This document shows, one piece after another, positions 1-6,038 of a stretch of DNA of 39,497 nt. Source of the DNA: Escherichia phage Pisces. The translations under genes were made by a program, and so were the position numbers. The stretch lies in the sequence record MK903277.1, one strand, 5' to 3'. The notes under the pieces are model-generated. The model saw nothing but the letters and a program-made list of their open reading frames with translations, did not search any database and was not told the origin of the DNA. Positions within the stretch are counted from its first letter, which is position 1. Each line of letters begins with the position of its first letter.

Positions 1-180
1 TCTCACAGTTCAAGAACCTCAAGTCTCCCCCATAGGCCTCTTTCAGTCAGACCAAAGGCCACCACCCCAGTGACCAAAGGTCAAACCTCAAGTCTTTGAC
101 CCAAGGTTGGCCCAAAGTCTGGACCGATAGGGCCTATATCTAGTGGTCAAGACCCAAGGTTAGGACTATATGTTGTGTCC
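1..180 (+). other. Genome left-end region (T7-type terminus, possible terminal repeat copy)
   Basis: Begins TCTCACAG as the T7 left end does; rich in short CAAGGT/CAAGTC motifs; no second copy at the right end of the window, so terminal-repeat length cannot be verified. Confidence 0.4.
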
Positions 181-201
181 CTGAGTCTCTATCTGTATCA
201 G

Positions 202-253
202 CCTCAAGTCATCACCTCAAGTCATCACCTCAAGTCATCACCTACAGTCTCAG
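202..253 (+). repeat. Tandem 13-bp repeat CCTCAAGTCATCA x3 plus a degenerate fourth unit
   Basis: Three perfect direct units at 202-214, 215-227 and 228-240, then CCTACAGTCTCAG; analogous in position to the T7 post-terminal-repeat CCTAAAG repeat array. Confidence 0.8.
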
Positions 254-527
254 ACCATCGGTAAAGCCATCACCTACAGTCAAAGACCTACGGTCCGGTA
301 GACACTCAGATTGACCTATCGTTTATCAGAGACCTTAGGTCTAGTCTCACAGGTTATCGTTATAGTCTCTATTTAGCAGTCAGGGAGACTATCAGTCTGA
401 CTAGGGTTATTGTTGGTGTCTACCAACTGGACTCTTATTATCCATAGTCAGGGCTTAAAGTCAATCATCTGTAGTCGTTATTGGTCTACCTTATATAGTC
501 ACTGGACTACTGTATAAATTAACACTA

Positions 528-557
528 TTGACGTTTAGTCTGACCTATGAGACTATA
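528..557 (+). promoter_or_regulatory. Host sigma70-type early promoter (T7 A1-like)
   Basis: TTGACG (528-533), 17-nt spacer, GACTAT (551-556); sequence and spacing closely parallel T7 A1 TTGACT-17-GATACT as I recall it. Confidence 0.6.
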
Positions 558-676
558 GCTTCCGTCAACACGACACGGCAAACACCGGATAGTAGCGACA
601 CCGGGTCACACGGTTAAGTAGACAGCCTGATAAGTCATACGAACAACAGGCAGTGACGAGAAGTGAAACAAAACGC

Positions 677-706
677 TTGACAAGATGTACCGGCTTAACG
701 TAGTAT
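677..706 (+). promoter_or_regulatory. Host sigma70-type early promoter (T7 A3-like)
   Basis: TTGACA (677-682), 17-18 nt spacer, TAGTAT, followed by GTACCACAT as in T7 A3; flanking GTGAAACAAAACG also conserved. Confidence 0.55.
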
Positions 707-832
707 GTACCACATCGAAACAACGGTGAGGCCCAACACTGAAACGGGATAGCGAGGCGACGACAGCTAAGCGAATGCTCTTTAACAATCTGGATAACTC
801 TTAATGTGCGCCGATAGTAAGCGATTAACTAC

Positions 833-900
833 AGGGCCTTGAGTCTACCGCGAGACGGGCTTGACTTGAGCGACTCAGGGTCCTGACTGATAGTCACTTA
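833..900 (+). promoter_or_regulatory. Leader hairpin / putative RNase III processing site upstream of gene 0.3
   Basis: Imperfect inverted repeat GGGCCTTGAGTC...GACTCAGGGTCC, followed by CCTGACTGATAGTCACTTAA, a 20-nt element repeated at 1807-1826. Confidence 0.35.
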
Positions 901-921
901 ACCAACTAAAGGATAAACATC

Positions 922-1386
922 ATGATTTACACTAATGAACAAGCTAACGTATTCTACGTGTATCTGACCGCATATCGCAGCATTAACCTGTACGCAATCA
1001 ACGAGATACTCACCAAAGAGATGGCCGCACGTATCAAGAAACATCCGGGCTTCTACGGGTCTCTCATCAATCAGAACGTTGAGGGCTGCTACCATGAGGC
1101 TGGCGTAGGTCTGCCGAGCGTAGAGCGCACACTGGTAGTTAAATGCACTAAGCTGTCACAGGTCGCTGAGCTGACACGTCTGGCTTGCGAGGACTACGAC
1201 CAAGACGCAGTGTTGCAAGTTAACTCTCAGACTCATACGGCGATACTCAATAGCCTTGAGACGGTGGGCGAATACCCTCAGTCTTACAAGCGCATCAAAG
1301 AGGAGACCATAGGCACCTTCACTAAGCAAGACACCGGGTCTGAGATGTACAGCATCGTCAACGGTGAACGCTGGGAGGTGGCCTAA
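922..1386 (+). CDS. S-adenosyl-L-methionine hydrolase (T3 gene 0.3-type anti-restriction protein)
   Basis: 154 aa; N-terminus MIYTNEQANVFYV and internal blocks (GCYHEA, LACEDYDQD, QTHTA) resemble T3 SAMase as I recall it; first gene after early promoters; SD AAAGGA. Confidence 0.65.
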   Translation: MIYTNEQANVFYVYLTAYRSINLYAINEILTKEMAARIKKHPGFYGSLINQNVEGCYHEAGVGLPSVERTLVVKCTKLSQVAELTRLACEDYDQDAVLQVNSQTHTAILNSLETVGEYPQSYKRIKEETIGTFTKQDTGSEMYSIVNGERWEVA

Positions 1387-1455
1387 TGTCCTACGAACAG
1401 TGGGAAGACGGAATGTATTACTTAGAGTGGCTGTATCGAAACGCGAGAGGGTAAC

Positions 1456-1776
1456 ATGATTGCATATAAAATCTTCAGAATCCGTAAGGATGGGACGCTG
1501 GGCGCTTTATTCATCAACCGTAAGGCGGTGATTGAGATAGGCGAGTGGTATGAGGCTGAAAGTCATCCGACTAAGGGTTTCGCCTATCGTCCGGGCTGGC
1601 ACTGTACCTTTGAGCAGAATGCACCGCATCTCAAGCTAGACCTGAAGTCTGGTGAGCGCCGGGCATGGTTTAAGGTCGAGGTGGAGGATATAACCACGTA
1701 TGACAGGCCTGAGTCTCAAGGTGGGGCGTGGGTACTGGCTCAGCGTCTCCGGGTACTAGAGCAAGTCTCAGAGTGA
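1456..1776 (+). CDS. Hypothetical early protein (106 aa)
   Basis: ORF with SD GAGAGGGT 3 nt upstream of ATG; occupies the gene 0.4-0.6 position; no recognisable motif. Confidence 0.5.
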   Translation: MIAYKIFRIRKDGTLGALFINRKAVIEIGEWYEAESHPTKGFAYRPGWHCTFEQNAPHLKLDLKSGERRAWFKVEVEDITTYDRPESQGGAWVLAQRLRVLEQVSE

Positions 1777-1788
1777 TAGACTACAGGT

Positions 1789-1826
1789 CTCTTGAGCGAG
1801 AGGCCTGACTGATTGTCACTTAATCA
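1789..1826 (+). promoter_or_regulatory. Leader hairpin / putative RNase III site upstream of gene 0.7
   Basis: CAGGTCTC...GAGAGGCCTG inverted repeat, followed by CCTGACTGATTGTCACTTAA (near-identical to 881-900). Confidence 0.35.
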
Positions 1827-1843
1827 CATAAGGAAACAACTGT

Positions 1844-2578
1844 ATGAACGCACACGATAAAGTAATCATGAACAACCTGATGTCTCAGCTTCACGCTATC
1901 ATCTGCGAGGAGTGCTACAAGATTGAGGACTCAAGCGCTGGGATTGCAGGTCAACCGCGCTGGGGAGCCTTCGAGATACTGGCTAAAGAGCATGGCTACA
2001 AGCTGTTAGGTCTGGGACACTTCGCCGCTGCCTTTGAGCATGAGGACCTGCCGGGCTACGCTATCAAGGTGGGCTTTAAGAAGGACGACTCAGGCGCTGC
2101 ATATGCGGCCTTCTGCCGAGAGAATGAAGGTCTGCCGGGACTGCCAGTCATTCATCTGGTCAAGCGCTTCAGCAGGGCCTACATGGTGGCTATGGATAAA
2201 TACCGCTCACTGAATGACATCGGCGGGAACTACTGCCGGGAGGGTGCAACCTACGAACAGCGAGTCTTAAACGTGTCGTGGCGTGTAGTCAACGCGATAA
2301 TAGACCAGTGCGAGCAACCATCTGAAGCGCTAAGCTGGTGGCTGGACCAAGATGCGCGGGCTGAGTTTGCACACGTCGAGACTCAGTACATCAAAGACCT
2401 TGCGCAGACTGCTAAGAAGATTAACAGCTTCTTCTACGGGCTGGCATCATTCGACACTCACCGCGCTAACGTGATGGTCGATAACAACGGGCGACTGATA
2501 ATCACTGACCCGGTGTCTTGGACCGCAAGCGACCATCAAGACGAGATGCAGGGTAAACTGAATGCAATAGCCGAGTGA
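1844..2578 (+). CDS. Gene 0.7-like serine/threonine protein kinase, kinase domain only
   Basis: 244 aa; block AIKVGFKKDDSGAAYAAFCR matches T7 gp0.7 [26 protein letters not shown] motif conserved; lacks the roughly 115-aa C-terminal host shut-off part present in T7. Confidence 0.8.
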   Translation: MNAHDKVIMNNLMSQLHAIICEECYKIEDSSAGIAGQPRWGAFEILAKEHGYKLLGLGHFAAAFEHEDLPGYAIKVGFKKDDSGAAYAAFCRENEGLPGLPVIHLVKRFSRAYMVAMDKYRSLNDIGGNYCREGATYEQRVLNVSWRVVNAIIDQCEQPSEALSWWLDQDARAEFAHVETQYIKDLAQTAKKINSFFYGLASFDTHRANVMVDNNGRLIITDPVSWTASDHQDEMQGKLNAIAE

Positions 2579-2732
2579 TAGGCGAGAGGCCACTACATCT
2601 AGTGGTCTCAAAGATTATTACTCACAACATATAGAGGTGAACTATGAACATTGGTTACTGGGTGTGCCTTACTCCGGTCATCTTTCTGATAGCTTTCGGT
2701 CTTCTGGATGCAATCAAGAGAGGGTCTTTCTA

Positions 2733-2927
2733 ATGGCTTGGGCACTTCTGGTCATCGGCTACGGGTTAATACTCGCAGTCATCACGAAAGACATCATCAA
2801 GGCACGTAAAGTCTACCGCTTCCAGTATGTATCACTGGGCCGCTGGACTGTAAGGCAACCAAACGGACGCTTTATGCGCAACCTCGCAAACGTCTGGGAT
2901 ATAGCAACATTAGGGAGTAAACTGTAA
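2733..2927 (+). CDS. Small membrane protein (64 aa)
   Basis: ATG at 2733 overlaps upstream stop (TAATG); N-terminal hydrophobic helix WALLVIGYGLILAVI followed by a basic tail; the ORF track's GTG start at 2637 is less likely. Confidence 0.4.
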   Translation: MAWALLVIGYGLILAVITKDIIKARKVYRFQYVSLGRWTVRQPNGRFMRNLANVWDIATLGSKL

Positions 2928-3253
2928 TGAGCAAATCTTATGGCATCAACTTGGTTCACGCACTAGACGCCGACCTCAATCTGCTTTCATCACTGGCTAC
3001 AGGCTACCGACACGGGACCTCACGTCACACCGTTCGTCAACAGCAGGAGCGCGACCGGGTACTGCAAGCAAGACTCCGGGCCGAGGGCAATAAGGCCGAG
3101 CTGATGTGTCTGGCCTACGGTGGGCGACCACGCACTGACGATGGTAAACTTCTGGTCTCAGGCTGGAGGGCGATAGACCAGCGGTCAGACATCAAGCACA
3201 CGACCAAAGGTGACTTCAGTCATCTCCACGCTAACCCACTGATATGCAAGTAG
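2927..3253 (+). CDS. Hypothetical basic protein (108 aa)
   Basis: ATG overlaps previous stop (TAATG), SD AGGGAG upstream; Arg/Gln-rich; immediately upstream of the RNA polymerase gene. Confidence 0.5.
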   Translation: MSKSYGINLVHALDADLNLLSSLATGYRHGTSRHTVRQQQERDRVLQARLRAEGNKAELMCLAYGGRPRTDDGKLLVSGWRAIDQRSDIKHTTKGDFSHLHANPLICK

Positions 3254-3260
3254 TTTGGAC

Positions 3261-3330
3261 TAAACTATCACTAAAGGACTCAAGGTCGAAAGACTCTAAG
3301 TCAGGACTGAAGTGAAAGACTTTAGTGATA
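3261..3330 (+). promoter_or_regulatory. Promoter-like element inside a long hairpin upstream of the RNAP gene (R1-like processing site)
   Basis: TAAACTATCACTAAAGG (3261-3277) differs from the phage promoter consensus at -2; TATCACTAAAG (3266-3276) is the exact reverse complement of CTTTAGTGATA (3319-3329). Confidence 0.4.
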
Positions 3331-3356
3331 AGACAACAGTTATAAGGACTTTAAGT

Positions 3357-6038
3357 ATGAGCGTCATCTCAATTGACAAGCACGACTTCTCTGATGTGTC
3401 GAATGCAATCGAGCCATTCAACGTACTGGCTGACCACTACGGTCAGGACCTAGCAGTAAAACAGCTTCAGCTTGAGCATGAGGCGTACACTGAAGGCGAG
3501 CGACGTTTCATCAAGAACCTTGAGCGCCAAGCTGAGCGCGGGGAGCTGGCAGACAATCAGGTCGCCAAGCCACTGATGCAAACTCTGGTCCCGACCATCG
3601 CCAAGGCTGTTCGTGAGTGGCACGAAGGCCCGGACGGTAAGTCCTCGACCTCTCGCCCAAGCGTAGCGTTTACCATGCTGAGCACTGACGAGAAGGCTGT
3701 CAAAGACCGCTCTCTGCGAATCTCTGCTGAGTCTGCTGCGGTCATCATACTGAAAGTCATCCTCAGCAAGCTGGTCAAGCCTGAGGGAATCCCGATAACG
3801 CCGATGGCCTCCGCGATTGGTCGCACACTTGAAGATGAAATCCGCTTCGGTCGCATCCGTGAGCAGGAGCAGGAGCACTTCAAGAAGACCATAGCTGAGA
3901 ACCTGAAGAAACGTGCAGGAGCAAGCTACAAGAAAGCCTACATGCAAGCGGTCGAAGCCTCCATGCTGGAGCAAGGGAAACTGGCTGACGCTTGGGGGAC
4001 TTGGAGTCCGACCGAGGCGGTACACGTAGGCATCAAGATGCTGGAGCTGGTCATCCAGTCCTCGCAACTGGTCGAACTGAAGCGCTACGGTGCAGGTAAC
4101 GCTGCGGCAGACGTCGAGATGGTCCACCTGTCAGACTTCTGGGTCAAGAAGATGTCGCAACGTGGCTTCTCACTGGCTGGCATCGCTCCGGTCTACCAAC
4201 CTTGCGTCGTTCCACCTAAGCCGTGGACCGGGGTCGTGGGTGGTGGGTACTGGGCTAAGGGCCGAAGACCTCTCCCGCTGATTCGCTTAGGGTCCAAGGC
4301 TGCGGTCCAGCGCTACGAAGACGTGTACATGCCCGAAGTCTACGAGGCAGTGAATATCATCCAGCAGACACCTTGGAAGGTGAACAAGAAGGTGCTGGAC
4401 GTGGTGAACATGGTCGAGAAGCTGAACAACACGCCTATCGCTGACATCCCTCAGATGGAACCGATGAAGCCTGAAGACTATGCAGGTGAGACCGAGGAAG
4501 AACTCAAAGCGTGGAAGAAAGCCGCTGCTGGTATCTATCGACGCGAGAAGGCCCGACAGTCCCGCCGTTTGTCCCTGAGCTTCATCGTCGGACAGGCGAA
4601 CAAGTTCTCTCAGTTCAAGGCCATCTGGTTCCCATACAACATGGACTGGCGCGGTCGAGTCTATGCGGTCCCGATGTTCAACCCTCAGGGTAACGACATG
4701 CAGAAGGGTCTGCTGACTCTGGCAGTAGGCAAGCCAATCGGTGCGGATGGCTTCAAGTGGCTGAAGGTCCACGGTGCAAACTGCGCTGGTGTCGATAAAG
4801 TCACCTTCGAGGAGCGCATCAAGTGGGTCGAAGACAACCACGACAACATCCTCGCGGCTGCTAAGAGTCCGATGGATAGCATTGACTGGTGGGGTCAGTT
4901 AGACTCTCCGTTCTGCTTCCTCGCGTTCTGCTTCGAGTATGCTGGAGTCATGCACCACGGGCTGAGCTACTCCTGCTCACTGCCTATCGCGTTCGATGGG
5001 TCCTGCTCTGGGATTCAGCACTTCAGCGCGATGCTTCGTGACCACGTTGGTGGACATGCGGTCAACCTGACGCCAAGCGGTAAGGTCCAAGACATCTACC
5101 GCATTGTGTCCGACCGGGTGGAAGAACAGCTTAAGGAGCTGCTGGTCAACGGTAGTGACAACGAAGTCAAGACCTTCGAGGACAAGAAGACGGGCGAGAT
5201 TACTGAACGTCTGGTCCTTGGAACTCGCGAGCTGGCCCGTCAGTGGCTGACCTACGGGATGTCACGCTCGGTCACTAAACGCTCGGTCATGACTCTGGCC
5301 TATGGGTCGAAGGAATACGGGTTCGCGGACCAAGTGTTTGAGGACACCGTGATGCCAGCGATTGACAGCGGCAAGGGCGCGATGTTCACGGACCCAAGCC
5401 AAGCGTCACGCTTCATGGCTAAGATGATTTGGGATGCGGTAAGCGTGACCGTAGTTGCTGCGGTAGACGCGATGAAGTGGCTGCAAGGCGCTGCTAAACT
5501 GCTGGCTGCTGAGGTCAAGGACAAGAAGACCAAAGAGGTCCTGAAGCCTTGCCTCCCGGTTCACTGGGTCACACCTGATGGCTTCCCGGTCTGGCAGGAG
5601 TACCGCAAGAAAGACACCACACGCCTGAACCTCCTATTCCTTGGGTCGTTCAACCTGCAACCGACAGTCAACAAAGGGTCGAAGAAAGAGCTGGACAAGC
5701 ACAAGCAGGAGTCCGGCATCAGTCCTAACTTCGTACACTCACAGGATGGCAGTCACCTGAGGAAGACTGTAGTCCACACCCACCGCAAGTACGGCGTGAT
5801 GTCCTTCGCAGTGATTCACGATAGCTTCGGGACCATCCCGGCTGACGCTGAGTTCCTGTTCAAAGGCGTCCGTGAGACGATGGTTGAGACCTACCGCGAC
5901 AACGATGTGCTGCAAGACTTCTACGAGCAGTTCGCGGACCAGCTTCACGAGAGCCAGCGCGATAAGTTGCCTGAGCTGCCGAAGCGCGGTAAACTGAACA
6001 TTGAAGACATTCTGTTATCTGACTTTGCATTCGCCTGA
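3357..6038 (+). CDS. Single-subunit DNA-directed RNA polymerase (T7 gene 1 homologue)
   Basis: 893 aa from ATG 3357 (the ORF track's 3312 start is probably too early); strong collinear similarity to T7 RNAP including the specificity-loop region and C-terminal FAFA. Confidence 0.95.
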   Translation: MSVISIDKHDFSDVSNAIEPFNVLADHYGQDLAVKQLQLEHEAYTEGERRFIKNLERQAERGELADNQVAKPLMQTLVPTIAKAVREWHEGPDGKSSTSRPSVAFTMLSTDEKAVKDRSLRISAESAAVIILKVILSKLVKPEGIPITPMASAIGRTLEDEIRFGRIREQEQEHFKKTIAENLKKRAGASYKKAYMQAVEASMLEQGKLADAWGTWSPTEAVHVGIKMLELVIQSSQLVELKRYGAGNAAADVEMVHLSDFWVKKMSQRGFSLAGIAPVYQPCVVPPKPWTGVVGGGYWAKGRRPLPLIRLGSKAAVQRYEDVYMPEVYEAVNIIQQTPWKVNKKVLDVVNMVEKLNNTPIADIPQMEPMKPEDYAGETEEELKAWKKAAAGIYRREKARQSRRLSLSFIVGQANKFSQFKAIWFPYNMDWRGRVYAVPMFNPQGNDMQKGLLTLAVGKPIGADGFKWLKVHGANCAGVDKVTFEERIKWVEDNHDNILAAAKSPMDSIDWWGQLDSPFCFLAFCFEYAGVMHHGLSYSCSLPIAFDGSCSGIQHFSAMLRDHVGGHAVNLTPSGKVQDIYRIVSDRVEEQLKELLVNGSDNEVKTFEDKKTGEITERLVLGTRELARQWLTYGMSRSVTKRSVMTLAYGSKEYGFADQVFEDTVMPAIDSGKGAMFTDPSQASRFMAKMIWDAVSVTVVAAVDAMKWLQGAAKLLAAEVKDKKTKEVLKPCLPVHWVTPDGFPVWQEYRKKDTTRLNLLFLGSFNLQPTVNKGSKKELDKHKQESGISPNFVHSQDGSHLRKTVVHTHRKYGVMSFAVIHDSFGTIPADAEFLFKGVRETMVETYRDNDVLQDFYEQFADQLHESQRDKLPELPKRGKLNIEDILLSDFAFA

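Follow-up and report, generated by a model that had tools for sequence, protein, structure and literature searches.

The stretch of DNA analysed here (the window) is the complete 39,497-bp genome of Escherichia phage Pisces, a T7-like phage whose nearest GenBank relatives are Kayfunaviruses. Two small open reading frames (ORFs) follow each other in its early region. A 22-codon ORF at 1386..1454 (+) (ATG at 1386-1388, stop at 1452-1454) specifies the peptide MSYEQWEDGMYYLEWLYRNARG, and a 106-codon ORF at 1456..1776 (+) (ATG at 1456, TGA at 1774-1776) is the gene CPT_Pisces_002, whose product of 106 amino acids (aa), QEG09556.1, is annotated as 'hypothetical protein'. Upstream lies the S-adenosylmethionine (SAM) lyase gene, the gene 0.3 equivalent of the 154-aa type (922-1386 (+), stop TAA at 1384-1386; Pfam S-AdoMet_lyase, E = 1.4e-34). 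Its stop overlaps the start of the 22-codon ORF at base 1386 in the sequence TAATG, and a Shine-Dalgarno-like GGAGGT serving that ORF is found at 1374..1379 (+), within the last lyase codons. A single base (C1455) separates the 22-codon stop from the 106-codon ATG, and the Shine-Dalgarno-like GAGAGGG of the longer ORF (1445..1451 (+)) is located within the end of the shorter one. Downstream is the gene for a gp0.7-type protein kinase of 244 aa (1844..2578 (+); phrog_15752, E = 3.3e-111), whose homologues on related contigs are annotated PF27024 Phage_T7_kinase. A preliminary description of the region had placed both ORFs between these two genes, with a ribosome-binding site for the longer and TAATG coupling for the shorter, and our analysis agrees with it on each of these points.

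A sigma-70-like promoter (677-706) is present upstream of the SAM lyase and both ORFs. Hairpins at ~836-905, 1779-1830 and 2586-2610 display the pattern of the annotated phage T3 RNase III sites R0.3, R0.5 and R1. The R0.3-like hairpin (836..905 (+), upstream of gene 0.3) folds at -22.9 kcal/mol and has a CAGG..stem..CCTGACTGAT.GTCACTTAA pattern in common with the T3 R0.3 and R0.5 sites; it would form the 5' boundary of a processed early mRNA carrying the lyase and both ORFs. With a folding energy of -18.2 kcal/mol (z = -2.5), the R0.5-like hairpin (1779..1830 (+)) is similar to the annotated T3 R0.5 and is kept in relatives with and without the 106-aa gene. Here the gene 0.3 mRNA would have its 3' boundary, and a swappable cassette has its right-hand edge. 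The hairpin at ~2586-2610, of the T3 R1-type pattern, is also a stable fold. Because RNase III-like hairpins flank them, the lyase, the 22-codon ORF and the 106-codon ORF are most likely carried on one processed early mRNA, in the position of T7 gene 0.4.

The 106-aa gene differs from its counterpart in phage IMM-002 at 50 nucleotides, 42 of them at third codon positions, with only three residues changed. Judged by this pattern it is under strong purifying selection, which rules out a spurious ORF. Its G+C content (52.8%) is close to that of the genome (53.2%). Only four T7-like records in GenBank carry the gene: vB_EclP_26 (EclP26; 98%), IMM-002 (97%, two records) and NJ2 (87.5%). The family is also carried at 54-72% identity by ∼35 myovirus records of 140-155 kb, which are Certreviruses (CR3, CR8 and phiTE among them) and Vibrio phages. 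The homologues in Pectobacterium phage phiTE (L007 5001-5312) and Enterobacter phage NJ2 (L004 1801-2115) are unannotated in GenBank.

In phage MBBL139, the closest DNA relative of Pisces, a 41-aa ORF replaces the 106-aa gene; similarity between the two genomes ends at the 22-codon stop and resumes at the R0.5-like hairpin. Other relatives have gp0.4, or ORFs of 41, 52 or 63 aa, in the same slot. The 106-aa gene was found behind either type of SAM lyase. It directly abuts a lyase of the 150-aa type in IMM-002 and EclP26, and two other small ORFs intervene in NJ2 and in one further contig (L020). We concluded that the 106-aa gene is an accessory cassette dropped by recombination into the gp0.4 slot of a few T7-like phages. 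The interval from gene 0.3 to R0.5 acts as a hot spot of cassette swapping, and is a good place to look for further accessory genes. Swapping also affects the gene 0.3 position (L002, L003, L005 and L012), which is occupied by the 154-aa lyase, by the 150-aa lyase (36% identical), or by Ocr plus gp0.4 (L012).

Far from being an orphan, the 106-aa protein matched phrog_12224 (E = 8.5e-53, residues 1-104), a family listed as 'unknown function', as did all 117 of 117 relatives; a variant with an insertion is phrog_30118, likewise 'unknown function'. A word-indexed search of a 5.8-billion-protein collection returned 942 homologues, all unnamed, and an exhaustive profile search gave 756 clusters (50% identity). 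The ORF has no match in Pfam, NCBIfam or PADLOC, and the only match in the PDB by sequence was at chance level (E = 0.57). The residues K5, L18-F19-I20, G41, R45, G47, H49, A56-P57-H58-L59, R69, W71, R84-P85, Q88-G89-G90 and W92 are near-invariant in the family, and these are polar, basic or aromatic. The preliminary description had regarded both ORFs as uncharacterised, and sequence, profile and structure searches likewise returned no confident homology to a characterised family. The literature searched contained no mention of the family, its PHROG numbers or accessions, or of DUF7666 (see below). The 106-aa family, together with the conserved, unannotated micro-gene that precedes it in Pisces, is previously uncharacterised.

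Genomes of 185,579 prokaryotic species yielded only 17 matches to the family, all on contigs of metagenome-assembled genomes assigned to widely differing phyla, with 40-64% identity for the near full-length ones. Proteins 47-64% identical to the Pisces protein are encoded on phage contigs that had been binned with genomes of Clostridia, Bacteroidota, Cyanobacteria and Saccharibacteria. One weak family match was detected among 72,556 plasmids and none among 5,426 E. coli genomes. On these searches, an origin from a prophage or a plasmid is rejected. The family is essentially confined to virulent phages, which infect many bacterial phyla. In four autographivirus-like lineages a T7-type RNA polymerase gene is situated <4 kb from the family gene.

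The same domain is embedded, together with LPD domains, in giant phage proteins. Such giant polyvalent proteins are described as packaged in the virion and injected. In P0253, a 2,936-aa LPD22 polyvalent protein, the domain occupies residues 834-928; P0057 is a fusion of LPD18 to the domain, and the giant proteins P0259, P0266 and P0269 also contain it. It is thus a module of polyvalent proteins, of the kind reportedly described by Iyer et al. in 2017. The uncharacterised protein GP88 (PF17338, phrog_1392) is fused to the 106-aa domain in P0269 (683 aa), and on two phage contigs unrelated to each other a GP88 gene (L038 4269-4955 and L031 810-1424) adjoins the family gene, which suggests a functional link between the two. 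ADP-ribosyltransferases (ARTs) were reported as the most frequent modifying enzymes of polyvalent proteins (PMC9503650).

An AlphaFold2 model of the 106-aa protein, built with 31 sequences, is mainly beta-strand and was predicted with a mean local confidence (pLDDT) of 91.7 and a predicted TM-score (pTM) of 0.84. The predicted structure has the split beta-sheet of the ART fold. The top match of Foldseek against the PDB was the rifampin ADP-ribosyltransferase Arr (probability 0.94, E = 0.07). Although the Foldseek scores are modest, the enrichment among the matches makes the ART-like class of the predicted fold secure. AcrIF19 of Pectobacterium was considered but rejected, its fold being a different one, built from four strands and two helices with an acidic loop.

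Our preferred but tentative reading, which we hold to be somewhat more doubtful than probable, is that the 106-aa protein is an early effector acting through a ligand of the NAD+ (nicotinamide adenine dinucleotide) or ADP-ribose type. The protein would be produced in the first minutes of infection, and a cleft lined by K5, R45, H49, H58, R69, W71, R84 and Q88 would bind the nucleotide. ADP-ribose would then be transferred to a universally conserved component of the host or its defences, or the ligand would be held or altered, and the phage would benefit by passing through the early, defence-exposed phase. An NAD+-type ligand and a universal target are suggested because, to our knowledge, every characterised ART-fold enzyme uses NAD+, because the conserved residues are basic and aromatic, and because the protein is conserved across unrelated hosts. 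The ligand, the chemistry, the target and the benefit to the phage are what we infer from these considerations. An anti-defence or host-takeover role, for which the preliminary description had put the ORFs forward as candidates, would fit the early position of the gene, and the occurrence of the domain in polyvalent proteins strengthens the case.

Several observations weigh against an NAD+-dependent effector. No ART model of Pfam, NCBIfam or PADLOC matches the 106-aa protein or any of the 117 relatives. The canonical ART triad (H-Y-[EDQ] or R-S-E, on strands 1, 2 and 5) is not recognisable by sequence; strand 1 carries the invariant K5 where ARTs have His or Arg, and no acidic residue is invariant (E35 and E86 are 80 and 67% conserved, respectively). 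By sequence alone, H49, W71 and Q88, each 96-99% conserved, are candidate equivalents of the triad. ART-like domains that are inactive exist. The closest relatives, DUF7666 and the C-terminal domain of T4 RIIB (RIIB-C), are biochemically uncharacterised. In ART cores a helix usually follows each strand (PMC9503650), whereas the model is almost free of helices. The gene neighbourhood offers weak help: Certreviruses carry NAD+-salvage genes at a distance of 2-5 kb from the family gene (NAMPT and phosphoribosyl pyrophosphate (PRPP) synthetase; L006 1346-4078 and L007 1-3515), and a Parabacteroides-binned contig (L031 4718-5539) carries a PRPP synthetase gene only, at the same distance, which makes two lineages only and may be coincidence.

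The links to DUF7666 and RIIB-C bear on another interpretation. Among viral models, the best annotated Foldseek matches of the 106-aa protein were DUF7666 proteins (E = 6.5e-3 to 2e-2, probability 1.0), and many RIIB proteins were also matched (E = 0.1-0.7, TM-score ∼0.5). DUF7666 (PF24703) was the sole recurrent weak Pfam match among the relatives (7/117, best E = 7.5e-4); the Pisces protein itself has no match to it at E <= 1. A single-sequence HHalign comparison of the family with T4 RIIB was not significant. Against eight RIIB C-terminal sequences the alignment was colinear over the full length (P = 0.007, with a probability of only 2-5%, which is suggestive only), and it lined up the motifs [YW]K, F-x-N and G-x-H-x-C (G-[LW]-H-x-C). 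In an AlphaFold2 model of a protein consisting of RIIB-C only (pLDDT 84.7), the aligned motifs likewise coincide with strands, in the same order. The 106-aa protein probably shares ancestry with DUF7666 and RIIB-C, as a distant relative. T4 RIIB acts against RexAB and sets off a bacterial gasdermin system (PMC10312443).

On this evidence the 106-aa protein could be a non-catalytic module of the RIIB-C/DUF7666 type, which binds a host or defence protein, or membrane-associated machinery watched by abortive-infection systems, and either protects the phage or is sensed, as T4 RIIB is; the ART-like fold would then be an inherited scaffold. The matches to DUF7666 and RIIB in the model, Pfam and profile comparisons, the shared strand order, the unrecognisable triad and the known activities of RIIB all favour such a module. 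However, the low HHalign probability and the lack of a DUF7666 match in the Pisces protein count against it, and near-invariant charged and aromatic residues across unrelated phyla speak for a small molecule or a nucleic acid as ligand rather than for a rapidly evolving protein interface. It is also compatible with NAD+ binding, since RIIB-C may itself be an NAD+-binding ART-fold domain. We consider a purely non-catalytic module a serious alternative, if a rather unlikely one.

The second serious alternative is a module for binding or targeting nucleic acids, whose Lys, Arg and His residues would grip phosphates and which would shield or tag the DNA or RNA of the phage, or direct nucleases fused to it. 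In its favour, P0242 carries the 106-aa domain fused N-terminally to a GIY-YIG nuclease domain, basic residues (K5, R45, H49, H58, R69 and R84) predominate among the conserved ones, and in T4 RIIB a helix-turn-helix at the N terminus accompanies the related C-terminal domain. But the nuclease fusion is a single one, the whole protein is only mildly basic (isoelectric point (pI) 7.9, net charge +0.8), and the fold searches gave no match to a known DNA- or RNA-binding fold. A nucleic-acid module appears improbable.

A bolder form of the NAD+-based reading would make the 106-aa protein, DUF7666 and RIIB-C one phage-specific branch of the ARTs, with a Lys/His/Trp/Gln site instead of H-Y-E. The stand-alone form would act on NAD+ or an NAD+-derived immune signal, either by modifying a universal target or by capturing an ADP-ribose second messenger, and would serve as a counter-defence of broad host range. 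We put this forward as speculation with little chance of being right in full. If true, it would give a first biochemical handle on the action of RIIB against RexAB-type abortive infection. A relationship to RIIB-C would link the 70-year-old rII/Rex exclusion puzzle to a defined fold and a candidate ligand. No characterisation of RIIB together with ART was found in the literature searched, and rIIB is not mentioned in the main text of a survey of viral NAD+/ADP-ribose systems (PMC9503650). If the fold reflects function, the family would represent a very widespread, previously unstudied ART-like effector of virulent phages of many phyla. The stand-alone form is practical to study, being encoded by an easily engineered T7-like phage of E. 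coli.

The 22-codon ORF was detected in 10 phage genomes or contigs: Pisces, MBBL139 and eight metagenomic Kayfunavirus-like contigs. The MBBL139 peptide is identical to that of Pisces, and the metagenomic copies are identical or a Y3H variant. Among GenBank phages, tblastn with the peptide returned MBBL139 only, and Pfam, NCBIfam and PADLOC scans of the ORF gave no match. Six distinct nucleotide versions of the ORF have 13 variable sites, 11 at third codon positions, which cause a single amino-acid change (Y3H); one Leu codon differs at two bases (TTA to CTT). The other two frames of the locus are not conserved: the same differences alter their peptides, and one frame has a stop. The GGAGGT motif at 1374-1379 is kept in 10 of 10 copies. 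A spurious ORF is ruled out by this third-position, near-wholly synonymous variation, by which the 22-codon ORF is a genuine gene under selection. The synonymous third-position changes, the TTA to CTT replacement included, would mean that selection acts on the protein and not on RNA structure.

All nine of the other 22-codon loci have a lyase of the 154-aa type upstream, and the ORF follows the 150-aa type in none of five. The Pisces lyase shares 89-95% identity with the lyases located upstream of the 22-aa ORFs of other contigs; its identity to the 150-aa type, found in IMM-002, EclP26 and NJ2, is only 36%. What follows the 22-aa ORF varies: Pisces has the 106-aa gene there, most relatives have an ORF of 41 aa, and L010 has one of 52 aa. 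In one contig (L015 1762-1997) the lyase is reduced to its last 55 codons, yet an intact 22-codon ORF follows. The ORF would be a translated micro-gene inherited together with the 154-aa SAM lyase. Its product, which is acidic (pI 4.4) and rich in aromatic residues, is most likely a short aromatic, acidic peptide that works with this lyase. The 22-codon gene shows that standard annotation overlooks conserved micro-genes in T7-like early regions.

Could the 22-codon ORF be left untranslated, and owe its conservation to an RNA or DNA signal situated between the lyase gene and its downstream neighbour? The ORF is very short, and its peptide was not found in the protein collection, nor in IMG/VR with the degenerate DNA pattern tried (0 matches). 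However, almost all changes are synonymous and at third positions, including the two-base change of the Leu codon, the Shine-Dalgarno motif is strong and comes with TAATG coupling, and nothing relevant emerged when bases 1-4000 were scanned against Rfam, the region having no match to any Rfam family. We regard such a signal as very unlikely.

T7 gp0.4 (PF26807) is reportedly an inhibitor of FtsZ, and gp0.6 is said to inhibit MreB. The preliminary description had assigned the two Pisces ORFs to the slot of gp0.4 and gp0.6. The gp0.4 part of this assignment holds, the ORFs being on the gene 0.3 side of the R0.5-like hairpin; the gp0.6 part does not, as a T3-type gp0.6 homologue, a 64-aa membrane-type protein (33% identity, E = 1e-7), is encoded downstream of the kinase at 2733-2927. 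The impression that neither ORF resembles gp0.4 or gp0.6 was confirmed by BLASTP of both against five sequences (T7 gp0.4, gp0.5 and gp0.6A; T3 gp0.6 and gp0.65), which gave E-values of 0.03 or worse, and the 106-aa ORF was rejected as a homologue of either protein. This needs one qualification: there is a weak alignment between the 22-aa peptide and T7 gp0.4 residues 27-42 (W..M..L..LY.N), in the C-terminal half of gp0.4, with a pairwise score equalled by 39 of 2,000 shuffles. Against a profile of 44 gp0.4 sequences it scored 2.8 bits, equalled by 49 of 3,000 shuffles (about 1.6%), which falls short of what we would accept as similarity to gp0.4. The resemblance is a weak lead. The peptide could, alternatively to a partner of the lyase, be a strongly shortened gp0.4-like peptide.

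That both ORFs are functional stand-ins for T7 gp0.4 and gp0.6, acting as inhibitors of FtsZ or MreB, is highly improbable: their place on the gene 0.3 mRNA is that of T7 gene 0.4, a relative (L012) has a true gp0.4 homologue (PF26807) in the same place, and the 22-aa peptide shows the faint alignment just described, but the gp0.4 profile score is low, the 106-aa protein has no similarity to gp0.4, gp0.5 or gp0.6, its family extends across many phyla and into polyvalent proteins, unlike a host-specific cytoskeleton inhibitor, and a gp0.6 homologue is already present.

Other features were noted around the locus and in related records. The kinase of Pisces is short (244 aa, compared with ∼360-370 aa in T7 and T3 and 378 aa in NJ2), and the C-terminal region of the longer proteins is missing. 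Directly 3' of the kinase and its hairpin, a 29-codon hydrophobic ORF, MNIGYWVCLTPVIFLIAFGLLDAIKRGSF, is located at 2644-2733; it may be another unannotated micro-gene. In NJ2 the gp0.6 homologue is encoded upstream of the kinase, directly 3' of the 104-aa gene. Near the left genome end, CCTCAAGTCATCA(C) occurs in three tandem copies at 197-244, just inside or adjoining the 190-bp terminal repeat reported for Pisces. The records of Staphylococcus phage MBBL139 (L001, OR786095.1) and of Enterococcus phages IME_EF3 and EFA-1 are Kayfunavirus-like and ∼88% identical to Pisces, and their host labels look doubtful.

Compared with known systems, the two Pisces ORFs share with T7 gp0.4 its slot and the coupling to the gene 0.3 stop codon; they differ from it in that the 22-aa ORF has less than half its length and the 106-aa ORF is unrelated. 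Within the ART superfamily, the nearest known counterparts of the 106-aa protein are minimal members such as Arr, AcrIF11, TreTu and Tpt1/KptA. The DUF7666 proteins (PF24703) are usually longer and often have pentapeptide repeats. RIIB-C (PF26926 in precomputed annotations) resembles the Pisces protein in strand order and colinear motifs, and both belong to phage-only, non-structural proteins. T4 RIIB as a whole is different, with 312 aa, an N-terminal helix-turn-helix and a middle region, and it works with RIIA, whereas the Pisces protein is the bare domain and carries its own motifs, APHL and RP-x-SQGG-x-W.

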